59,017 nucleotides of DNA from a virus (Duplodnaviria > Caudoviricetes), in the IMG/VR virus record IMGVR_UViG_3300048576_000482, positions 1 to 59,017 of that record. One strand, given 5' to 3'. Positions within the stretch are counted from its first letter, which is position 1, and each line of letters begins with the position of its first letter. Shown here piece by piece: positions 16,547 through 56,039 of this stretch. The notes beneath the pieces are model-generated. The model saw only the letters and a list, made by a program, of their open reading frames with translations. It was not told where the DNA came from and did not search any database. Made by a program: the position numbers and the translations under genes.

Positions 16547-19500
16547 ATGCCTAATTCGAACTCAGATCTAGATACAATTTTAAAGCAGCTCGACAAAGAG
16601 GCTTTTTTAAACTCTTTGGGGTTACAAAAAAACAGGAATGGCAGGTGGTATGTGGACTGCCCGTTTTGTGGCGGGAAAGAAAAATTAAGTATTAATGTTG
16701 ATAATGGCCTATGGAAATGTTTTAAGGATAACTGCCCAGGCGGCCAGGGAAATATTATTACGTTATACGCTAAAATGCAGGATTGCACCAACGGCGAAGC
16801 GGTTAAAGCGATCAAAGAATTTGCTGGAATCGAGGATGAGTCGAAATTTGGCCAATCTAGTAAATCAAAAAAAACCATAAAAAAAACGGTATCGCCTAAA
16901 GTTAATGATATTCCTGATGCAGATCAAACCGGTGGTGATGACATTCCGCCTTGGGAAGATCCGGTGTCTACCGAAGAGGGGACCCATCTTCCGGACAAAT
17001 ATGTCGAATCTGCAATCAACGCGGAAACGGCGCTTTCCCAGAATATCTATTCCGAATTGGTAAAACTGGCTCACTTGACAGACGCGCACCGGAATGAGCT
17101 CCGGACCAAAAGAGGATTTACAGACGACACAATTGAGCGGCTGTCGTTCCGCTCCGGCGGTCCATATATGGTTCAGATTATTGAAACTTTAAAAGGGAAA
17201 TTTACGGCCGAGGATTTAAGGAAAGCGGGAATACTTTTTGAAGTTAACGGCAAGTTGGTTCCCAATAAGCAATTAATTGATCCTGTAATCAAGCTTACCA
17301 AGGACGGTAAAGAGAAAACGCACTCGAATATTTTAATTCCATATCCGGACGAATATGGCCGATTTGTTTATTTACGATCTCACAAGCTTGGTTTTAAAAA
17401 CGTTCCAATCCAAATTTACTGCCGAATGTTTTTGGCCGAAGCACGAGCCGCCGGATTTGACTGGACTTTTATAACCGAAGGGGAGTTTAAAGCCGGAGCA
17501 CTTCGCCAATTAAAATTTCCCTCATTTGCCATTCCAGGTGTCGGCAGTTTTAGTGATACCCGGTTCGATGAACTGGTTTCACTCCTTAAAGAATTTGGCA
17601 TTAAAAAAGTAATATGGCTCTTTGATAATGAAATAAAAGACAACCCGGATTTTGATAACTACAAACAAAAACCGGAAAAGCGTTATGATACCGAATTCTA
17701 TTCCTATATCATGGCGTACAAATTTCATAAAGCCGGTTTTGTATCACTTATTGGAAAATTGCCTGACGAGTGGCGCCAAAAAGGGAAAATTGATTGCGAT
17801 GGCGCCGTGGCGCTTGGGAAAAAACATGATGATTTTTTACCCATAATCAACAAAGCCAAGACTCACAATGAATTTATCAATCAACTTCCAGATGACGCCC
17901 AGCGTATAGTCAAACGTAAAAATGCCAAATATTTTTTGGAAACCAAGTCACCAATAACCAGAGAGTTCAATAAATACGTTATTACCCATAAAAAAGGCGA
18001 AGAAAACGAATGGGAAGAGACAATCAGTAATTTTATCATTAACATCAAATCATCTTTTTTTACTCCAGATGGGGTGATCCGAAATATCCAGTTGGTCAAC
18101 GAATTTGGGGAAACTTCCGCGACGTTTGCCATGACTCCCGGCAATATGGCCGGACTGCACGAGTTTAAACAGTTTTGTTTTTCCAAAGGGAACTACCTTT
18201 TCAAAGGCAGTTCTGATGATCTTTTAAAAATATGGGAATTTGAATTTGCCCGGGATGTGGGAGACTTAATCTATATGCCGGAAGGAATTGGCCGAGTAGA
18301 TAACGATGTCTGGTTATTTGCCAATGCCGCAATCCATGAAGGGAAAATATACCGCCCGGATTCGGACGGAATTATGTGGATTAACGGGAAAGGGTATAAA
18401 CCGCAATCAATCCAGATTAATGCCCATGGTGAAAGTACTAATGAATCGATTCCGGCTCTATCGGAAAAACCTATTGATTTAGCGGATTTAGCCCGTAAAA
18501 TGCGGCAAACGGTTGGAGGCTACGAGGCTTATATGGGGCTTGGCTGGGTGATCGCCACACTATTCAATGATGATATTTTTGATGTATACAAGTGCTGCCC
18601 AATCTTTTTTCCCCACGGAAAACGCGGTTCAGGCAAATCGACTTTTGCACGGTGGCTGATCCGGTGTTTCGGGATTGAACTTGAAGGTACTGGCCTGGCT
18701 GATACGACTGCCCCTTATATTTCGCGCGCAGTATCATTTTATAGTTCGCTAGGGGTTCCTTTTGAAGAATATCGTAATGAGCAAAAGGTAAAACAAAAAG
18801 ACGGCCTTTTTCGCGGGTTATATAACCGGCAGTTCTCCGGCAAAGGGACTAATACATCGATTTACACCAGAGCTTTTAATGTAAATGCAAATATATTGAT
18901 TGTTGGCGAAGAATTACCCGGAGACAATGGATTATTTACCCGTTTGATCCCAGTGCAGATTTCGGAACACAAACGGGATCGCACTCACTACGAATACTTA
19001 AATAGGCATATGACATCATTCTCATATTTAACGTATTACGTAATAATGAATTTTACCGAGTTAAAGCCCAAAATAATGGCTAATATCGCTGAATTAAAAC
19101 AAATGCTACTATCCAGAGACATTAGTGACCGGACGGCTGAAAACTGGGCGATATGTGCCGGAGCTTTTTATACAGTGATACTGCAAGACGATGAGTTTAT
19201 TCGATGGGTTGAAAAAGCTTGCCAAGAAATCAAGCAGACCGGCGAAAAAGAACATATGTTGAATCAGTTTTTTCATGGAGTATCGGTACTTGTCAACGAA
19301 CATAAGCTTAATTCATCCCACATTTGTTTTGACAGATCTAAGAACTATATTGCCATATGGACCGGGGTGTATGATATTTGGTCTGAGCATTACCGGAAAG
19401 TCACCGGCAACGATCCGTTCGACGAACTATCTATTCGCAAATACCTAATGGATGAGCCATATTATTTAAAAACCGAAAAAATTACTTTCTTTGGAAAAGA

Positions 19501-19603
19501 ACGAAAACGAGCATTTGTAATAAATTTAAGTAAAGCTCCTGAAGAATTGCATGATGTCATTGATATCATGGAAGCCAGACAATGGCAGCAAGAATCCGGT
19601 TAA
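16547..19603 (+). CDS. Primase (Zn finger + TOPRIM) fused to P-loop ATPase/helicase
   Basis: CPFC...WKCFKDNC Zn finger; FITEGEFKA, LFDNE and KIDCD TOPRIM-like motifs; Walker A HGKRGSGKST; Walker B-like PFEEY. Confidence 0.85.
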   Translation: MPNSNSDLDTILKQLDKEAFLNSLGLQKNRNGRWYVDCPFCGGKEKLSINVDNGLWKCFKDNCPGGQGNIITLYAKMQDCTNGEAVKAIKEFAGIEDESKFGQSSKSKKTIKKTVSPKVNDIPDADQTGGDDIPPWEDPVSTEEGTHLPDKYVESAINAETALSQNIYSELVKLAHLTDAHRNELRTKRGFTDDTIERLSFRSGGPYMVQIIETLKGKFTAEDLRKAGILFEVNGKLVPNKQLIDPVIKLTKDGKEKTHSNILIPYPDEYGRFVYLRSHKLGFKNVPIQIYCRMFLAEARAAGFDWTFITEGEFKAGALRQLKFPSFAIPGVGSFSDTRFDELVSLLKEFGIKKVIWLFDNEIKDNPDFDNYKQKPEKRYDTEFYSYIMAYKFHKAGFVSLIGKLPDEWRQKGKIDCDGAVALGKKHDDFLPIINKAKTHNEFINQLPDDAQRIVKRKNAKYFLETKSPITREFNKYVITHKKGEENEWEETISNFIINIKSSFFTPDGVIRNIQLVNEFGETSATFAMTPGNMAGLHEFKQFCFSKGNYLFKGSSDDLLKIWEFEFARDVGDLIYMPEGIGRVDNDVWLFANAAIHEGKIYRPDSDGIMWINGKGYKPQSIQINAHGESTNESIPALSEKPIDLADLARKMRQTVGGYEAYMGLGWVIATLFNDDIFDVYKCCPIFFPHGKRGSGKSTFARWLIRCFGIELEGTGLADTTAPYISRAVSFYSSLGVPFEEYRNEQKVKQKDGLFRGLYNRQFSGKGTNTSIYTRAFNVNANILIVGEELPGDNGLFTRLIPVQISEHKRDRTHYEYLNRHMTSFSYLTYYVIMNFTELKPKIMANIAELKQMLLSRDISDRTAENWAICAGAFYTVILQDDEFIRWVEKACQEIKQTGEKEHMLNQFFHGVSVLVNEHKLNSSHICFDRSKNYIAIWTGVYDIWSEHYRKVTGNDPFDELSIRKYLMDEPYYLKTEKITFFGKERKRAFVINLSKAPEELHDVIDIMEARQWQQESG

Positions 19604-19633
19604 GAATTAAGTTTACATAAGTAAATATTAAAA

Positions 19634-20008
19634 ATGTGCCCAGGCTGTTTTGTTAATAATATCAATGGTTTACTTGTTTTGCGCCCAACGCGCCCAGACG
19701 ATTTTATAAAAAGTGCCCAGCCACAAAATTTAGAGCATCAATAATTTACACGATTTCGCCCAGCGCGCCCAAGCAATATAGATCAAAAACTTTTTTTAAA
19801 ATTCATGGCGAGCAGATCGTTTCTAAAATCCTGAGAAGAAAATATGAAAAAATTTTATCTCATTTTCCTGGGCGCGCTGGGCGCGAAACAGCAAAGTACC
19901 GTGGTTATCGAACAAAACCGCGCCCAAGCAATGTGGCAGGGAAAACGTTGTAGAGCATTAATGAATTAACTTTTTTCCGCGCCCAACTAGTTTTTTCCAC
20001 CTGGGCGG
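19634..20008. repeat. Putative replication origin: 11 GCCCA-core iterons in both orientations
   Basis: Non-coding stretch right after the primase-ATPase; (C)GCCCA on + at ~19638, 19683, 19692, 19715, 19758, 19767, 19922 and 19981, and on - at ~19869, 19878 and 20002; AT-rich spacers. Confidence 0.7.
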
Positions 20009-20061
20009 ATGGCTGATTAATAAGGATTTATGGTTGGCATACCAGCTAGGAGGATGTTTTC

Positions 20062-43175: not shown

Positions 43176-43579
43176 ATCAGATAGAGACCATTATTTCAAA
43201 GTATATCGGCGTGCCTTATCTCCATGGCGGCCGTGACATCAAAACTGGTCTCGATTGTCTGGGACTATGCTATTTAATTTATCGCGATTTTGGTATAAAC
43301 ATTCCAGATGGAGACGGTAGCGAATATCCTCCGGATTGGTTTATGTTTGACAAAGAACGATACATCCGGGGGATATTAACGCATGGCCAAGCGGTTGAGT
43401 TATCAAAACTAAAACCGCTTGATTTTGTTTATTTCAGCATGGCTGGAATAATCACTCATACCGGAGTAATGGTGGATACTTACCGATTTATACACGTGCT
43501 CGAAAATAAATCGGTCTGTATCGAACAATTAAGTTCCCCCTGGCGGAGACGGTTGGCCGGGGCGAGGAGGTTTGTCTAA
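43172..43579 (+). CDS. NlpC/P60 tail-tip peptidase (gpK-like)
   Basis: YIGVPYLHGGRD..GLDCLGL; HTGV; FIH. Confidence 0.88.
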   Translation: MNQIETIISKYIGVPYLHGGRDIKTGLDCLGLCYLIYRDFGINIPDGDGSEYPPDWFMFDKERYIRGILTHGQAVELSKLKPLDFVYFSMAGIITHTGVMVDTYRFIHVLENKSVCIEQLSSPWRRRLAGARRFV

Positions 43580-46500
43580 TGGGAGCAGGGGCATTAATTG
43601 GAGCGTTGGTTGGAGGTCTGTCCAGTGGTAACGTACTAGGGGGCGCTTTAATGCATTTTTTTGGCGACTCCATCCTCACCGGTATCATGACCGGGGCATC
43701 CCTGGGCTCCCTTTTTGATCAGTCGGCAACGTCGAGCACTTATGAATTCGGGTCGAGTCAAAACACCAGGTCAAACCGGCTCCCCATACCGGTTATCTAT
43801 GGCCGGTGCAAAGTAGCGGGGAATGTAGTTTATGAATCCAGACCTGACCCGATTGCTATTAAAAACGAGACTTTGAGTAATCCATCTGGGAATAAACAAA
43901 ATTATTTATTTGCTCATGGTGATATTTTTTTATCTCCAGCCCCGGTGATAAAGTTATACCGATATTATAATTTATGGGGCGGCCGCGTCCAATATAACGA
44001 AACAGTCATAGTGGATTCGAGCCAGTACTCGATCAATGAAGTAAACGGAGAATTAAATTTTTATCAGGCACTGGTGGTTCCGACATCTCCAAATGGTGGG
44101 ATTACTCAAGAGGTACGAGCCGATTATACCTACCAACCGGCCACGAGCGGTCAAATTAAAATCCAGGTTGCTTTGGGCGAAGGGCCGGTCCAAAGTGTAT
44201 CGGACATTAAAATCAATAATGTAGCCATTGAGCGTATCGCGAATGCCTCGTGGTCAATTTATTATGGGACTTCAAGCCAAGTGGCGGATTCCCGAAACCC
44301 GATTGGTGAAGCTTTTCGGGATGTAGCATATTTATCTATATCTTTGCAGGCTAATGATCAGGTGTCCGGGACGGTCACGGCCACCGCAATTGTAGAGGGT
44401 CGGATAGTAAACGTGTGGGATTCCGACGCCGGAGCATGGATACAAACATACAGCCGGAATCCGGTTTGGTGTCTGTTGGACATGTTGACGAATACCAGGT
44501 ATGGTAAGGGCATACCGACAAGTAAAATTAATCTGGAGAGTTTTAAAGCGGTGGCGCCATACTGTGATGCGCTGGTCGATAATGGCAACGGTGGCCAAGA
44601 GTCCCGTTTTTTATTCGATTACAGTTTCGACTCTATCATTGATTCTAGCGATGCTATCGAAGAAATCTTGAAGACATTCGGCGGCATGTTAATTCGTGCA
44701 GACGGACAAATCCAATTGCGCGTTGAACAGTCAGAGGCAGCGACGTTTGCATTTGACAGCACTAATATCATCGAGGGCAGTTTTACATACCAGCCCAGGC
44801 AGAGGTCTAAAGAGATTCCAAACCGGGTTGTCATCGAGTTTATTAACCCCAACAATAACCGCAATGCTTGGGAAATGGACGCGGTGGTCATCGACGATGA
44901 ATGGGACCAGGAGCAGCGTGGTAAAATCATCGAGAAAAAACTACAATATCGGGGCATCACCCGGGCCAGCCAGGCCGGTCGAATGGGTTGGCTGGTTTAT
45001 GACAAGCTCCGTTGGTGCGGGGCGATATGCCAATTTAGAGTTGGGATTGACTCGATCGCCAATACAGTTGGCGACGTTGTAACGATCAACCACATGTTAT
45101 CCGGAGGAGTGGCGAAGAAGTTTAGAATATTATCCATGGAAGAGGCCGAGAATGACGAAGCCACGATTACGGCAATGATTCACCGGGATGACATTTTTCA
45201 TGATCGCGGGGTTGTATATGTGCCGGTGCCGGAGACTAGTCTGCCTGATCCGTTTAGCGTGCCGGACCCGACCGGGCTGGTGTTAAGTGAATCTACATAT
45301 TTAAACAACTCCGGGGAAGTCATCCCGGAAATTACTGTGGAGTTTAGCGCGGCGTCGCAATATACGTTTTATTATGGCACGCAAATTCAAATATCCAATG
45401 ACGCTGGAACCACTTGGCAGGATGTGGGGACGCCTATAATTGGCAGTTACAAAATCCACGGAATACAAGTTGGCACCAGCTACCAGGTGCGCCTCAGAAC
45501 CATATCCCGTGGTGGGATACCAAGCACCGGGATTATTGGTAATATTACATTAGATGGTAAAGTAACCCCACCAGCGTTAATAACATCGGATGCGCCGGTG
45601 GTCTACCGGGGGTTGCGCCAAATATCGTTAACTTGGAGCGGATCGGACGATACCGATATTACGTATTATGTGGTCGAGCGTAGCGAGGCCATAGCTACAT
45701 GGGACGAGGGTAACAAACAATATATAGTTCCATCTTCTCCAGAGTGGAGTGATTGGGGAGTTTTAATAAAAATAAAAGGGCTCAGTTTTACAGATCCCAA
45801 CGTGGAGTATAACAAGGTATATCGGTATCGGTATCGCGCACGGGATAACTCAAACAATTATAGTAGTTATTCGGACGCTTCGACCCCGACTGCAGGGAGC
45901 GCCGAGGGAATCCCAGAACAAACGCAAGCTGTTGATTTAAGCCAACACATTGCAGAGGCCTTGGCCGAAAATGTTGCGTGGTACCCGAGCGATATAGCGT
46001 CAAAAAACACAAAAACCATTAATTATTGCGAAACGGCATTTAGCGCTAACACGTGGACGGGGATAGCCGGTACATCCGGCACAAATGTGACTTACGTTAA
46101 AACTGGAAATGTGTCCATCTACATAAACTCAGCAACTAACTATGGCGGGGCGTCAGTTGTAGCGAGTCTAAATTTAGCCGTTTTTGGTGATGGATCAGTA
46201 AGCACAACAGATGATTATATTTGTTTTGCGGTATATATAAGCACAGTAAGCTTAAGCTACGTATCAACCGGGCTACTGTTGCGGTTTTTTTGCGATACCA
46301 AGCCAACGGCGATAAACCGGTTTGCATACTCTATACCAAAAACCAGTCTGTCTCCAGACACTTGGACAATGTTTGCAATACCAAAAACTGCGTTTACGAT
46401 ATACGGATCGCCGAACTGGTCAAACATAACCGGGTTTGATTGGGTTTTTGAGGGTGCTCCATCGGCAAACGCGGCGTTTTTTGTCGATGCATTCCAGATG

Positions 46501-47451
46501 GTACGGCGGGACCCAGTAGAGGCGAAGCCGAACCCATTCCAGACCAAAATCAACAATACCTGGGTGAGATTGATGGATATTCGATCTGGTCACTGGTATG
46601 TCGGTGCCGAGACTGCGAGCGCGACGCAAATTACATGTCGCAATCTAAATCCTAGCAATGACAATATGTCGCTGCAAAGCAATTATCCGTTTGCTGGCAG
46701 TTGGCAGATCGATGGGCATTCGATTTGCAAGGTCGCAAATAATATTGATGGATATGGTTGGTACATCGACGAGGATAATTATATCCAGGCTTATGTTGAT
46801 AGTGGTATATTGTATTTGGTTACATGTGAGGGCGGAATTGTTAGCAATGTATTAGCGTCATTATCTATTATTGCCAATGACAAAGTGCATTTTCGGCTCA
46901 ACCGGCAGGGATCGTCGGTTACATTACTAGTCGTTAAAAATGGTCAGATGGCAACGTCAAAGGCATTAACGATTGAAACATCGTTAAGTCTTTTGGAAAA
47001 TGGTTATCTGGGAGTTATAAGCAGCACGGGCAAAGGGTTTAATATGTTATTGACTGCCATCAGCCGGGGTGTATATGCTGGGGCCGCCGGAACTGCGGGG
47101 AGTGCCGAGATTGCGAGCAGGGCGTATTTGGCAGACGTGGCAGTCGCAGCGGATAGTCTTAGCTCAATTGCAACTGCAGCACAATTCGCAATGTCGCGTT
47201 CCGCAAACGGTTATCAAAAATTTCCAACAGGTATAATAATACAATGGGGATCAGGGGCTAATCAGCAGCCTAATATACTTAATGTTACCTTTCCGACGCA
47301 GTTTCCCACTGCTTGTTTTGTTGTAATACCAACTGTAGCGGTACAGCAATTAGTCTCTATTGCCGCGATTAATCTTTCACAGACAGGTTGTCAAATATAT
47401 AATGGTCTGTCAACTGGATATTGGTTTGCTTGGATGGCAATAGGGTGGTAA
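43579..47451 (+). CDS. Central tail fibre / host-specificity protein (gpJ-like)
   Basis: IPVIYG, LGEGPV and NPVWCLLDMLTNTRYG; Fn3-like repeats; C-terminal NGYQKFPTGIIIQWG..FPTQFP fibre-tip domain. Confidence 0.88.
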   Translation: MGAGALIGALVGGLSSGNVLGGALMHFFGDSILTGIMTGASLGSLFDQSATSSTYEFGSSQNTRSNRLPIPVIYGRCKVAGNVVYESRPDPIAIKNETLSNPSGNKQNYLFAHGDIFLSPAPVIKLYRYYNLWGGRVQYNETVIVDSSQYSINEVNGELNFYQALVVPTSPNGGITQEVRADYTYQPATSGQIKIQVALGEGPVQSVSDIKINNVAIERIANASWSIYYGTSSQVADSRNPIGEAFRDVAYLSISLQANDQVSGTVTATAIVEGRIVNVWDSDAGAWIQTYSRNPVWCLLDMLTNTRYGKGIPTSKINLESFKAVAPYCDALVDNGNGGQESRFLFDYSFDSIIDSSDAIEEILKTFGGMLIRADGQIQLRVEQSEAATFAFDSTNIIEGSFTYQPRQRSKEIPNRVVIEFINPNNNRNAWEMDAVVIDDEWDQEQRGKIIEKKLQYRGITRASQAGRMGWLVYDKLRWCGAICQFRVGIDSIANTVGDVVTINHMLSGGVAKKFRILSMEEAENDEATITAMIHRDDIFHDRGVVYVPVPETSLPDPFSVPDPTGLVLSESTYLNNSGEVIPEITVEFSAASQYTFYYGTQIQISNDAGTTWQDVGTPIIGSYKIHGIQVGTSYQVRLRTISRGGIPSTGIIGNITLDGKVTPPALITSDAPVVYRGLRQISLTWSGSDDTDITYYVVERSEAIATWDEGNKQYIVPSSPEWSDWGVLIKIKGLSFTDPNVEYNKVYRYRYRARDNSNNYSSYSDASTPTAGSAEGIPEQTQAVDLSQHIAEALAENVAWYPSDIASKNTKTINYCETAFSANTWTGIAGTSGTNVTYVKTGNVSIYINSATNYGGASVVASLNLAVFGDGSVSTTDDYICFAVYISTVSLSYVSTGLLLRFFCDTKPTAINRFAYSIPKTSLSPDTWTMFAIPKTAFTIYGSPNWSNITGFDWVFEGAPSANAAFFVDAFQMVRRDPVEAKPNPFQTKINNTWVRLMDIRSGHWYVGAETASATQITCRNLNPSNDNMSLQSNYPFAGSWQIDGHSICKVANNIDGYGWYIDEDNYIQAYVDSGILYLVTCEGGIVSNVLASLSIIANDKVHFRLNRQGSSVTLLVVKNGQMATSKALTIETSLSLLENGYLGVISSTGKGFNMLLTAISRGVYAGAAGTAGSAEIASRAYLADVAVAADSLSSIATAAQFAMSRSANGYQKFPTGIIIQWGSGANQQPNILNVTFPTQFPTACFVVIPTVAVQQLVSIAAINLSQTGCQIYNGLSTGYWFAWMAIGW

Positions 47452-47528: not shown

Positions 47529-48408
47529 ATGAAAAATAAAATTTGTCTAAGCTTGGTTATGGTGTTATTGTTGATTTTTTTTGTCAGGTTGTTTTAGTGG
47601 TGGCCCCAAAAAAATAAATGGACTCAAATTAATTTCGTTCGCAGGAGGTGGAACGACAAGTATGACCGCAAAAACGATTACTCCCGGTACAATGCCGGAT
47701 ATTGACGGAAAAGAAGGTAAGTTTAACGCCAGCACTGAATATGATGTTAAAGAGGTTGGCGGTACTCCATTCCATAGAACCTTATATTTACGTCCAACGG
47801 ACTTGAACGGCACTCCCATTTCGGTCGGTCCTGGTGAATCGATTGCTTGGGATCATGATTTTGACGCTTCAGAAGTGCGAACAGTCCAAGAAAACATTAT
47901 CGAAATCACCACCAATGCCGTTGGAGTCCATAACGTAAGTGCGACTTATCAAGGCTACACCAGCGTAAATAAAGTAGTAGTAGTCCCAAGATTAGTCACT
48001 GGTGATCAGCGTTACTATGGGTGTGCGCTAAAAATTAGTGATTATGATGAGGCTTCGTCGTCTCCGGATATTACATTTAACTATTCTAATTTTGGCGATA
48101 AATCATATACGCTGGACGCCCCTAATGGGTTGGCGGTACTCCAGATAACCGATGCTACATATCTGGATAGAGATGCTCGCCAAGCGTTTTGCGATTTAGC
48201 CTCTATTCCGGGTGATTTAAATGAATCAGATTATCAAACCAGTCTGATTATACCGGCGGATAAATCGGTGTTATGTATCGCCCGGGATGCCGCAGGAGGG
48301 CATGCAAAAATTTTATTCAGTCAGGGGCTAAATTGCTTTTATGCTGGATTGGACACATATATCGAGTATATTGGGGCAGGACAAACAGAGTTTGTATGTC
48401 ATTATTAA
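47529..48408 (+). pseudogene. Lipoprotein moron frameshifted in a T8 tract (phase-variable or sequencing error)
   Basis: ATG 47529 with AAGGGGGTG RBS; removing one T from 47575-47582 gives MKNKICLSLVMVLLLIFLSGC (lipobox), in frame with the 47581..48408 ORF. Confidence 0.75.
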
Positions 48409-48429
48409 GAGCCGTAAGGCTCTTTTTTT
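48407..48429 (+). terminator. Rho-independent terminator
   Basis: AAGAGCC-GTAA-GGCTCTT-TTTTT. Confidence 0.85.
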
Positions 48430-48466
48430 GTTACCGCTTGACTTTATAGTCATATTTTCGGTTTCT

Positions 48467-48519
48467 ACAGGACAAAACCTGTCCTTTTATTTGCCACGAT
48501 AGCCAATAAAATTAAAGTA
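48467..48519 (+). promoter_or_regulatory. Shared upstream element, copy 1
   Basis: ACAGGACAAAACCTGTCCTTTTATTTGCCACGATAGCCAATAAAATTAAAGTA; near-identical to 54878-54931. Confidence 0.8.
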
Positions 48520-48547
48520 TCGAGATAAAAGGGAGGTGTAAAATAAA

Positions 48548-49576
48548 ATGAATAAATTAGTGATTAAAGGTAATACCGTGATATGCGGCATGGAAGTACC
48601 CAAAATTTCCGGAGGATTTGGGCCGGGAAGACCGGTTATGTTAGCAAAGACGATTGCGGAACTGCATGAAATGCAATTAAAACATGTTAATGAAGCTATC
48701 AATGCAAACCGGAAACGATTTAAAGATGGAGTTGATGTTATTGATTTAAAAAACTCGATCACTTTAAGTGATCCACTTTCTAAAAACTCGGTCGACCAAA
48801 TCGACCCACTTCTTGTAGCTGGGATTTTATCTAAACAATCAATAGCCAACTCAGAAAATATCTACTTATGTTCCCAACGTGGCTACGCCAAACTTTTAAA
48901 GATATTCAACGACGATCTGGCATGGGAACGATATGATCAGATTATCAGCGAATATTTCGAAATGAAGGAAAGAAAGCCAAAACTTAAACCAATGGCACAG
49001 TTTAACCGGGAATTGAAATTGGCTAGCGAATTAGCGTTTCAGGCTTCCGACAACAAAACTAAGGCTAGAATATATCGTGCATTCGCGGACAGCCAAAACC
49101 TTGAGGCCAGTTTTATTAGTGTACTTGAAACTTTACCGGAAAATAATGACCGCCTTTTGCCCACCCCGGGTGGTCAAGTTAGTCAAGCAGTGATCACCCC
49201 AATCAATGATCCGGGGCTTAAAAAATTAAATTCTTTCTTGGAAGATGTACTTTCCTTAATTCGTTTCGGAGAAGTGGATCGTCGCTATATTCAGATTAAA
49301 ACATTAACTTCCGGTGAATTACGCGGAATGACTATGTTATTACTTTGGACGTGGGGAATATATGAAATATGGGCAGCAAAATACTTTCATGGAAATAGAA
49401 TTGACTATAAAGCTTACCATGATAACTTGATTGTTTGTCTTAAAAAACAGCCATATTATGGTGGATATATCGACAATAAAATTGCCTTTATCGATAAAGA
49501 ACGCCACCGGCCACATGCATTCTATCCTAAAAGGCTTGAAGGGGTTTTATTGGAGATTTTGAAGATGTTTGAATAA
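48548..49576 (+). CDS. ORF6N-domain (antirepressor-type) protein with primase-ATPase-like C-terminal domain
   Basis: GGFG...MLAKTIAELH..HVNEAINANRKRF.DGVDVIDLK...IYLCSQRGYAKLLKI; C-terminal part aligns with the end of 16547..19603. Confidence 0.8.
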   Translation: MNKLVIKGNTVICGMEVPKISGGFGPGRPVMLAKTIAELHEMQLKHVNEAINANRKRFKDGVDVIDLKNSITLSDPLSKNSVDQIDPLLVAGILSKQSIANSENIYLCSQRGYAKLLKIFNDDLAWERYDQIISEYFEMKERKPKLKPMAQFNRELKLASELAFQASDNKTKARIYRAFADSQNLEASFISVLETLPENNDRLLPTPGGQVSQAVITPINDPGLKKLNSFLEDVLSLIRFGEVDRRYIQIKTLTSGELRGMTMLLLWTWGIYEIWAAKYFHGNRIDYKAYHDNLIVCLKKQPYYGGYIDNKIAFIDKERHRPHAFYPKRLEGVLLEILKMFE

Positions 49577-49612
49577 CTTAACTTGACTTTTGATTAATAT
49601 AAAACTTAAGGA

Positions 49613-49885
49613 GTGATATCAACGAACGGCAAAGTAATTATTGATGGATACGCAAATGGAGATATATGGATGCACGGAGGAAAGCCCGATTCGAAAGCCA
49701 TAATTAATTTAGCCGTATCAAGTACAGCGTGGGATAATGATGTTAATAATAACAGTGAGAATATAAAGTCGATACTCTTGCAAATGGTTGATTTTCTTGA
49801 TAAATCCATTGAAGATGAAAAACAAAGCAAAAGATCGCAAACAATTAAAAAAAGAAAATTTGGGGTAATTATTCCAATAAAATAA
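49613..49885 (+). CDS. Hypothetical protein
   Basis: Open frame of 90 aa; start uncertain. Confidence 0.4.
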   Translation: MISTNGKVIIDGYANGDIWMHGGKPDSKAIINLAVSSTAWDNDVNNNSENIKSILLQMVDFLDKSIEDEKQSKRSQTIKKRKFGVIIPIK

Positions 49886-50049
49886 TTTTGTTCATTCTTA
49901 TCGTCTTTGGGCGGTATTTTTATCTCCAGCGTAGAGCCGGACCTGTTTGCACCAGGTTTCCCGGCTCTTTTTTCAACCTCTTGAGCGAGCAAGAGGTGAT
50001 ATCTTAATCGGTAGATATCGCCTTTTAGTTTATATAAATATAAAGGCGG

Positions 50050-54877: not shown

Positions 54878-54931
54878 ACAGGACAGAACCTGTCCTTTTT
54901 ATTTGCCCTGAAAGCCAATAAAATTAAAGTA
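54878..54931 (+). promoter_or_regulatory. Shared upstream element, copy 2
   Basis: ACAGGACAGAACCTGTCCTTTTTATTTGCCCTGAAAGCCAATAAAATTAAAGTA. Confidence 0.8.
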
Positions 54932-54980
54932 ATACTAAGTAATATTTAAAAAATCAACACTAAGAAAGGATGTTAACCGC

Positions 54981-56039
54981 ATGAAAACAAAAATCATTTC
55001 CAGCGACAACGGCCGGTCATTTAATAAATCTGGCTGCGCTTATCCGGGTATCAATGGTACACAATTCAAAACAAATGTTTTTCAGTCCGTCATGGCTCCA
55101 GCGGAATCCGGTTTCAATCTTACAGTAAAAATCGATCCAACCGACATCTGGATTGAATACCAGCGTGGCGGAGAATTTGGCCGCGGGGAATACCTTCCGG
55201 AGCACTATCTTGCCAACGGCTTGGCTATCCGGCAAAAACCAAAAAGCCTAATTAATGACCGGAATAGTGACAAAACCAATAAGCAAAATATTATTCAGAC
55301 CTTGATCGCCTGTTCCTTTTACGCCAAAACTGGCGATAACGTCATCCTGCTTACCAACATTCCGGCCGGCGATTATTCAGCCCAGCAGGGGAAACTAGGC
55401 GCCGCGCTCCGGGGCGTCCACAAAATTGTCCATAAAGCCGGGGACATGAAGGGCGTCGCTACGGAATTCAATATCGAAAAATGTTACGAATTCCCCGAGT
55501 GTGAAACGGCTTATTATGGCGCTGCTTATGATTTAGATCTGAATCTGGTTAATCCGGATATATGGAACTATCCCACGTTGATTTTAGACATCGGGGATGA
55601 GACGACAAACTATGTCGCAATGAATCCCCAGGGTGATCCGGTGGACGGTGAGTCCGGCACAATCCCTCATGGGATGAGCGAGGTATATTCGGATGTGTGC
55701 GCCTGGGCGACTAAAAAAGGTGCAGATATAAGTATCTCGGAACTAACCAGGATGATCATCTTCGGAGGTACTTTGTTTGCCGGTAAAGAGCAATTAAATT
55801 ATCGTACGGAATATCTGCGACGGCTCAGCGAGTTCGATTATACAATTTATAGCAAGTTAAATTCGCTGGTAAGCTTAAAACGATACCGGACTTTGTTACC
55901 AGTAGGCGGGAGCTTGCCACACACCGGCGACATGATTAAAAAACGATATCACTTCATGAACATTCCGGAAAAGACGGCCGGGGCTCAGATGTTAAATTGC
56001 TACGGGCAGTATATTGCGTATATGCTGGCGCAGGAGTGA
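54981..56039 (+). CDS. parM: ParM/StbA/Alp-family actin-like ATPase
   Basis: Phosphate 1 SDNGRSFNK; connect 1 FPECETA; phosphate 2 LDIGDETTN; adenosine VGGS; connect 2 AQMLNCYG. Confidence 0.85.
   Translation: MKTKIISSDNGRSFNKSGCAYPGINGTQFKTNVFQSVMAPAESGFNLTVKIDPTDIWIEYQRGGEFGRGEYLPEHYLANGLAIRQKPKSLINDRNSDKTNKQNIIQTLIACSFYAKTGDNVILLTNIPAGDYSAQQGKLGAALRGVHKIVHKAGDMKGVATEFNIEKCYEFPECETAYYGAAYDLDLNLVNPDIWNYPTLILDIGDETTNYVAMNPQGDPVDGESGTIPHGMSEVYSDVCAWATKKGADISISELTRMIIFGGTLFAGKEQLNYRTEYLRRLSEFDYTIYSKLNSLVSLKRYRTLLPVGGSLPHTGDMIKKRYHFMNIPEKTAGAQMLNCYGQYIAYMLAQE

Follow-up and report, generated by a model that had tools for sequence, protein, structure and literature searches.

A provirus ORF6N protein with a C-terminal domain homologous to that of primase-helicases: a possible origin-directed accessory factor

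Why should a domain homologous to the C-terminus of a replication initiator occur a second time in one prophage, on a protein encoded outside the replication module? This question is raised by the IMG/VR provirus record IMGVR_UViG_3300048576_000482, all 59,017 bases of which were analysed and are referred to here as the window. The window encodes P0001, a protein of 342 amino acids (aa) that combines an ORF6N module with a domain resembling an initiator C-terminal domain (CTD), and P0002, its 1018-aa primase-helicase. The best explanation we can offer is that P0001 is an accessory (moron-type) protein whose C-terminal module was captured from the origin-recognition CTD of a PriRep-type primase-helicase. 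The features compared, all on the + strand, are listed below.

48548..49576 (+): P0001 gene, an open reading frame (ORF) with its translation; GGGAGG ribosome-binding site upstream; full-length orthologue P0202 is 41% identical
48626..48904 (+): ORF6N domain, P0001 residues 27-119 (Pfam PF10543)
49226..49567 (+): C-terminal winged-helix-like domain, P0001 residues 227-340, homologous to the primase-helicase CTD by hidden Markov model (HMM) and hhalign; modelled with AlphaFold2 (AF2)
49478..49510 (+): beta-hairpin 'wing', P0001 residues 311-321; 7/11 identical to primase residues 978-988
16547..19603 (+): primase-helicase initiator P0002, 1018 aa, with CHC2 zinc finger, Toprim-like DUF3854, ATPase and C-terminal domain
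19232..19600 (+): primase-helicase C-terminal domain, residues 896-1018, corresponding to the C-domain of P0001; wing at 19478-19510

Homology of the P0001 C-domain to the primase C-terminus

A preliminary description of this DNA had reported five collinear blocks between the C-termini of P0001 and the primase, and all five were present in our alignments. BLASTP aligned residues 227-321 of P0001 with residues 905-988 of the primase (E 2e-4 in a single comparison); the significant alignment was confined to the C-domain, the next segment giving E 0.36. The pairwise identity is low (28% over 97 columns), as might be expected if the likeness were due to chance or composition. We collected 53 relatives of the primase C-terminus, cut out their last ~120 residues, and built an HMM from 51 relatives without the window's own primase. 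In a run of this model against every six-frame ORF of the window with 50 aa or more (409 in all), the primase came first (E 3e-43) and P0001 second (residues 227-340, 30.2 bits, E 9.5e-9), while the next ORF reached only E 1.3. Shuffled versions of the P0001 C-terminal part gave at most 7.1 bits (1640 scored of 2000 shuffles). Comparison by hhalign with a profile of 23 primase C-domains from related viral contigs, in which no window sequence was included, gave a probability of 95.7% and E 9.2e-9 over 100 columns. Conversely, with the P0001 C-domain as sole query, 10 of the 25 related viral records yielded their primase C-terminus, and the orthologue P0202 also matched the primase profile (E 1.5e-9). 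The significance that the preliminary description had asked of the alignment is thus present, and with the profile score, the shuffles, the hhalign result, the reciprocal recovery and the match of P0202 all standing against it, the probability of a chance or compositional likeness is negligible. An eleventh match of the P0001 C-domain query, off the primase in G015, turned out on checking to be noise, and a word-indexed protein search with the C-domain alone returned the query itself only.

Nothing in P0001 matched the primase and ATPase portions of the initiator, and the C-domain alone aligned significantly, in agreement with the earlier view of P0001 as catalytically empty. Neither an ATPase with Walker A/B motifs nor an oligomerisation collar was found, and no nuclease domain was detected with Pfam. 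Since ATPase, collar and primase matches are all missing, P0001 is not an initiator. Its sole Pfam match above the curated cut-off was ORF6N (PF10543), which covered model positions 8-86 of 86 with E 1.3e-10 and 41.9 bits (cut-off 27.8); P0202 scored 44.1 bits against the same model.

The AF2 model of the P0001 C-domain, made with an alignment of primase C-domains, was confident, with a predicted local distance difference test (pLDDT) value of 88.9, and showed the order helix, two strands, two helices, the strands of a beta-hairpin and a final helix. Its best matches in BFVD came from Flavobacterium phages, namely a protein of 175 aa and a Toprim protein of 903 aa (E 0.07-0.25). In the Protein Atlas, the best feature score of the C-domain was 0.84 (a P22_AR_C cluster) and the structural template-modelling (TM) score was at most 0.47, both under the lead level.

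The resident primase-helicase, its putative origin and the wing

The nature of the captured domain was assessed through the window's own primase. P4 alpha, which the preliminary description had used as its reference, is a primase-helicase with a C-terminal winged-helix origin binder and is modulated by the separately encoded small protein Cnr; the general architecture of the window primase (primase, ATPase, C-terminal winged helix) is alike. Its best structural analogues, however, were not P4 alpha but the self-loading helicases SaPI Rep and Cch. An AF2 model of primase residues 640-1018 (24-row alignment, mean pLDDT 81) matched the SCCmec Cch helicase 5dgk (Foldseek E 3.4e-7, TM 0.58, 386 columns), SaPIbov1 Rep 8tch (E 1.5e-6) and PriRep1 bound to double-stranded DNA, 7pds (E 1.3e-3). 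P4 entries were absent from the best 50 of 626 PDB matches of this ATPase and C-domain model, as well as from the best 50 of 138 matches of the P0001 C-domain. Profiles of the C-domain and of the whole primase, run against the sequences of solved structures, found only DnaG zinc fingers, and sequence similarity to the staphylococcal Cch/Rep proteins was not detected in this search. The link to these proteins is one of predicted fold, made through the model of the window's primase. None of the 25 aligned members of the primase C-domain family matched any Pfam model.

In the SaPI study (PMC9371898), the winged helix of the Rep CTD recognises 6-12 iterons lying directly downstream of rep, with sites in opposite directions around an AT-rich centre, and deletion of the CTD leads to the loss of origin binding, ATPase and helicase activity altogether. 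The CTD of SaPI Rep/PriRep5 and Cch occupies the same C-terminal position as in the window primase, and the iterons that follow the primase gene are arranged as described there.

19638..20006 (no strand assigned): putative origin, iterons; 7 exact GCGCCCA copies (12 GCCCA cores) in both orientations, with an AT-rich centre

The GCCCA iterons noted earlier were thus recovered as 12 cores directly after the primase gene. The first iteron lies 35 bp past the primase stop codon, and only three further copies of GCGCCCA occur outside the cluster in the whole window. By analogy, the intergenic region 19604-20061 looks like a SaPI-type origin. Within it there are also tandem sites in pairs, spaced 9 bases apart, and an 18-base repeat of the TAGAGCAT type that occurs twice. 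From the fold match to Cch, Rep and PriRep1 together with this iteron layout, we read the window primase as a PriRep-type initiator, the C-domain of which is very probably a winged helix that recognises the origin, as the preliminary description had proposed for the C-domain. In comparison with SaPI Rep and Cch, P0001, without ATPase, collar and primase part, cannot be an initiator or a helicase.

Among the related loci, a different GC-rich 7-mer was present in 5-12 copies within the 480 bases after the primase gene in 15 of 24, and no repeated 7-mer stood out there in the other nine. Examples from loci L002-L026 are TGGGACA, GTGGACA and CGTTCCA (12 copies each), TGAGCCA (10 copies) and GCGTAAC (5-7 copies). 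The wing sequences vary in step with the iterons, providing a natural series for wing-iteron specificity; where the iterons of two phages are identical or almost so, their wing sequences are nearly identical too, although such phages are also close kin. The repeated 7-mer of L018, GGTTGCA, is the iteron reported for PriRep5 of SaPI5 in a preprint (bioRxiv 10.64898/2026.10.17.759575). Primase genes were interrupted within or near the C-domain in three records, by a frameshift in G011 (locus L012), an in-frame TAA in G015 and an in-frame TAG in G019. In many relatives of 380-585 aa (e.g. P0081, P0102, P0103 and P0111), the ATPase and C-domain form a separate protein without the primase part, indicating that the family, like that of the SaPIs, has both split members (Pri and Rep) and fused ones (PriRep).

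According to that preprint, the beta-sheet of the PriRep5 CTD wing lies in the major groove and reads iteron bases; by analogy, the wing segment of the domains studied here would be an iteron-reading beta-hairpin. For this comparison, successive 11-residue windows along the P0001 C-domain were scored against each of 190 other C-domains. The best match came from the resident primase solely at P0001 residues 309-322, with a peak at 311-321 where 7 of the 11 residues were identical to primase 978-988 (rank 1 of 190); the score was 33 for the own primase, 28 for P0202 and 20 for P0003, the closest relative of the primase. Outside the wing, the own primase ranked 48th to 86th. We regard this sequence match between the wings of P0001 and the resident primase as suggestive. 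Recent gene conversion between the wing-coding stretches was considered and rejected, as only 23 of 33 bases are identical and no long identical run is present.

Spread of the accessory domain and setting of the P0001 gene

A profile search of 1.84 billion representatives yielded 259 proteins at E <=1e-3, and the figures given here come from the best 150 of these; since the profile included P0001, the score of P0001 itself in this search is circular. In nearly all of the best 150, the domain formed the C-terminal end of either a primase-helicase or a stand-alone ATPase, or of a fragment of one of these; the exceptions among them were the following.

P0202: ORF6N and C-domain; 41% identical to P0001 over the full length
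P0068 and P0168: Bro-N and C-domain
P0178, 354 aa, metagenomic: HSDR_N/HSDR_N_2, a PD-(D/E)XK nuclease-like module, and C-domain
P0147: N-terminus without a recognised module, and C-domain

All five matched the primase-only HMM with 33-87 bits. In a quick tree of 76 of 191 rows, for which every second primase/helicase row was taken and 'short' rows were dropped, the 'accessory' label changed three times, indicating at least three captures of the domain. By identity, the C-domains nearest to P0001 were those of the Bro-N protein P0168 (34%) and the orthologue P0202. In a 43-row tree, to be read with caution because of the long branches of the accessory copies, P0001, P0202 and P0168 were grouped with 98/99 support, and a clade of all four accessory copies was not rejected by the approximately unbiased (AU) test (p-AU 0.46). 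An insertion in the first hairpin is common to P0001 and P0168. On sequence phylogeny, the P0001 C-domain thus belongs to a small clade of accessory C-domains carried on ORF6N or Bro-N modules. Five of the six accessory C-domains are basic, with an isoelectric point (pI) of 9.3-9.7 (9.3 in P0001), in comparison with a median pI of 5.97 for primase-borne C-domains (n=120) and 6.32 for the window's own.

Single-protein queries with P0001 or P0002 found no related loci among viral contigs, while an alignment query led to 25. In these 25 related viral records the domain occurs exactly once per record, in the primase; a double match in one of them represents a single frameshifted gene. Distant ORF6N-like genes occurred in only two of these records, both without the C-domain. 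Among 401 genomes sampled from one phylum, the domain was present in five (four primase-size frames and one at a contig edge), and no accessory copy was found in those searched. The P0001 gene is a sporadic accessory gene outside the replication module. P0068 (Bro-N and C-domain) and the primase P0046 are both recorded on an NCBI contig of 62,869 bases, possibly the same one, and this may be a second element in which an initiator and an accessory copy occur together. A scan of genome contigs with P0068 gave Bro-N-only matches, none covering the C-domain, and metagenome scans for the contig of P0202 gave no match.

The P0001 gene has its own promoter/operator element, a second copy of which lies upstream of a parM-like gene.

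48407..48424 (+): terminator-like hairpin closing the upstream gene
48467..48520 (+): promoter/operator element before P0001, with palindrome AGGACA-N5-TGTCCT at 48469-48485 and a sigma-70-like promoter at 48491-48518
54878..54932 (+): second promoter/operator copy, upstream of parM, aligned to 48467-48520
54981..56039 (+): ParM-like actin-family partition ATPase (Pfam ALP_N and MreB-like_C; PHROG partition protein, E 1.4e-22)

As the hairpin closes the upstream gene, P0001 appears to start its own unit. The two elements of ~55 bp align nearly base for base, and the palindrome occurs at these two places only in the window (0.06 occurrences expected), in line with the earlier suggestion of co-regulation with ParM; the parM copy has an extra 22-base insert with direct repeats ahead of the ribosome-binding site. 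Judged from this sequence, the shared element places P0001 in the same predicted regulon as the maintenance function parM. The common promoter/operator is also what would speak for P0001 as a tether that binds origin-type DNA and links it to ParM/ParR. We consider such a role very improbable, because P0001 has no similarity to a ParR-type adaptor, ORF6N being its only Pfam match above the curated cut-off, because a shared promoter can stem from duplication when the moron was acquired, and because related phages are without the P0001 gene.

On one side of P0001 lie a tail-fibre gene (43579-47451) and, after it, a 275-aa ORF; on the other side is a lysis region composed of an 83-aa hydrophobic ORF and a 199-aa protein matching an endolysin PHROG. 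The G+C content of 48001-50000 is 38.3%, the lowest in the right half of the window, which fits the later acquisition of a cassette between the tail-fibre and lysis genes. No near-identical DNA to this stretch was found in the phage collection. Two further features lie directly 3' of P0001.

49613..49885 (+): 90-aa ORF with its own AAGGAG site, before terminator-like hairpins
49899-49916 and ~49930-49970: terminator-like hairpins after the 90-aa ORF

The 90-aa ORF may be co-transcribed with P0001 or encode its partner; it had no match in Pfam, PHROG or PADLOC.

Possible function of P0001 and its relation to known systems

Four things are established for P0001: the homology of its C-domain, its two-module build without ATPase or primase, its own promoter/operator duplicated before parM, and its sporadic distribution. 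As to function, we tentatively favour, at somewhat less than even chances, the reading that P0001 acts within the Bro/ORF6N network as a DNA binder that is directed to origins, is catalytically empty and hinders loading of the initiator. This reading draws on the C-domain homology, the fold and iteron layout of the primase, the wing likeness, the basic accessory domains, the repeated capture of the domain (including that by the nuclease-like P0178), the precedent of ICP1 Odn, and the element shared with parM. The basic winged helix would bring P0001 to iteron-type DNA, the likeliest targets being the GCGCCCA iterons of the resident origin or the iterons of closely related replicons. There, P0001 would neither unwind nor prime, but would occupy or bridge sites and so hinder initiator loading. 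The ORF6N module might allow P0001 to oligomerise, to touch DNA at another place or to recruit a partner. The outcome could be negative control of replication in a maintained prophage, or exclusion of a relative or satellite with the same type of origin.

The nearest precedent is Odn (Gp88) of phage ICP1, which, according to its description (PMC8263062), consists of an initiator origin-binding domain and a Bro-network nuclease, and binds and cuts the origin of a rival. Its RepA_N domain is 42% identical to that of its target and is joined to a T5orf172/GIY-YIG nuclease (PMC8263062). Like Odn as described there, P0001 is a phage accessory protein shuffled from an initiator DNA-binding domain and a Bro-network domain, and it is by analogy with Odn, which mimics the DNA specificity of the initiator (PMC8263062), that a similar likeness may be drawn for P0001. 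In contrast to Odn, P0001 has a PriRep-type winged helix with 21-28% identity and an ORF6N module without known catalytic activity, so that of the pair formed by initiator domain and nuclease it has the initiator-derived domain only. Moreover, Odn is reported to target the origin of a parasite, whereas the homologous initiator of P0001 is the phage's own. In architecture, P0178, with its nuclease-like module and C-domain, is nearer to Odn than P0001 is. A parallel in concept is provided by plasmid pIGRK, with truncated or DNA-binding-only initiator forms that are reported to antagonise full-length Rep (PMC6854812); these too are catalytically empty initiator derivatives acting as negative regulators. 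The pIGRK-type forms are in-frame products of rep, whereas P0001 has a gene to itself, which diverged long ago and was joined to an unrelated module.

A contact with the primase instead of with DNA is conceivable: the free C-domain could bind the primase-helicase, for example where the domain-swapped CTD of SaPI Reps rests on the ATPase body next to it, and inhibit ATPase or helicase activity. P4 Cnr acts on the origin-binding domain of alpha through such protein-protein contact, which for P0001 is put forward here as a rival proposal. In PriRep5 the CTD lies beneath the neighbouring subunit, and both the ATPase and the helicase depend on it (PMC9371898). We consider such poisoning of the initiator improbable, since a near-invariant motif of the primase CTD, possibly a docking surface, is absent from P0001, and since the basic character of the accessory copies points to a nucleic acid rather than a protein target.

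A much stronger competitor is that P0001 is an antirepressor or transcription regulator of the ordinary kind: its captured winged helix would have turned to another DNA site or a repressor protein, and the protein would control lysis-lysogeny, late or host genes. This possibility has a considerable chance of being correct and is almost as likely as the origin-directed reading, in comparison with which helicase poisoning and the partition tether are minor rivals. The best PHROG families for P0001 were all labelled anti-repressor (best E 3e-21). In tblastn against 50,697 phage records, P0001 matched 62 records, none covering 80% of the query, and in the 30 of these 62 that were listed the matches stopped by residue 185. 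This wider N-terminal module (residues 1-185) is common to 'antirepressors' of Firmicutes phages and is 36-51% identical to antirepressor-annotated proteins of Bacillus, Clostridium and Lactobacillus phages; the antirepressor label of these relatives is at the level of annotation (PHROGs and GenBank records). Residues 27-184, the ORF6N part, also matched PDC-S05, a candidate defence family of PADLOC, weakly (E 2.2e-6 at best), and the C-domain had no match among the PADLOC models. The sporadic occurrence of the gene, the loss of a primase-specific motif and the high divergence from every primase are likewise in keeping with an ordinary regulator, and swapping of C-domains is the rule in the Bro/ORF6N network according to a survey (PMC10111431). 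On the other hand, an ordinary regulator leaves unexplained both the wing likeness to the resident primase and the repeated capture of initiator C-domains, once by a nuclease-like module, and in the literature searched an interaction of ORF6N proteins with a repressor was not found.

Several observations weigh against the origin-directed reading. P0001 and the own primase share only 21-28% identity in the C-domain, and the motif R-K-x-T-G-R-E-P-F, near-invariant in primases, is lost in P0001 and P0202. Foldseek with the P0001 C-domain alone found no significant match in PDB (best E 0.43), although the top entries were winged-helix DNA binders (TcpK, forkhead, IRF, RTP and PriRep1; TM 0.3-0.45). 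A clade of P0001 with its own primase was rejected in the 43-row tree (difference in log-likelihood 38.5, p-AU 0.0036), and the own primase ranked 48th of 190 C-domains by identity to P0001; the preliminary description of the domain as a copy of the phage's own must thus be abandoned. As for the wing, the block had been seen before the test, which makes the test post hoc. A best-match run of at least four windows was held by 5 of the 187 rows outside the accessory clade, and the chance for a named sequence is ~3% when 'some segment' is counted and smaller for this exact segment. P0202 also has the wing motif E-R-x-R, which may therefore have been inherited from the ancestor of the accessory clade instead of being matched to this phage. 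The domain was absent from all of the 118 other ORF6N relatives among the matches listed (864 found), which carry KilAC, ORF6C, a helix-turn-helix or no named module and are labelled antirepressors. Finally, an accessory copy was found in none of the 25 related phage records, including the eight that are at least 90% complete. The gene is accordingly not needed for replication of this phage type, and the earlier idea of a conserved 'system' does not hold.

P0001 fits into the Bro/ORF6N network itself. Iyer, Koonin and Aravind reportedly described in 2002 a domain-swapping network of Bro-N, KilA-N and ORF6N. P0001 resembles the members of this network in the N-terminal position of ORF6N, the variable C-module and the sporadic, moron-like gene, as described in PMC10111431, and the same C-domain clade occurs on ORF6N (P0001 and P0202) and on Bro-N (P0168, with P0068 nearby). 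In contrast to the network domains, the C-module of P0001 is in no Pfam model, and it is not among the ten network domains given in PMC10111431. A fusion of ORF6N or Bro-N to a primase/Rep C-domain was not described in the literature searched, which did not cover the supplementary Bro-segment tables of PMC10111431, where such a domain could be listed. The ORF6N module, the initiator winged helix, domain shuffling and initiator mimicry are of kinds already known. What is new is the recognition of a C-domain family without a Pfam model, its repeated capture by Bro-N, ORF6N and nuclease-like modules, and a prophage that has, besides its initiator, an accessory copy with a wing like the initiator's. 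A more far-reaching proposal, which we regard as less likely than not, is that PriRep-type winged helices serve as a hitherto unrecognised, repeatedly captured 'addressing' module that aims Bro-N, ORF6N or nuclease effectors at origins. In P0001 the module would be tuned through the wing to the phage's own GCGCCCA iterons, and the protein, expressed with parM, would act as a copy-number brake or as an origin-specific factor excluding superinfecting relatives or satellites, a non-nuclease counterpart of Odn in Firmicutes phages.

If P0001 is an ordinary antirepressor, the finding shrinks to one more domain combination in the shuffling network. If its C-domain reads iterons, it would be the second independent case, after ICP1 Odn, of an initiator DNA-recognition domain reused outside the initiator, with an attached effector that differs from that of Odn and is apparently non-catalytic. 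The origin, the initiator and the putative mimic are all present on one 59-kb prophage, and its relatives offer natural variants of iteron and wing. The domain family would then link the replication modules of Firmicutes phages to the Bro/ORF6N network, the functions of which are mostly unknown.

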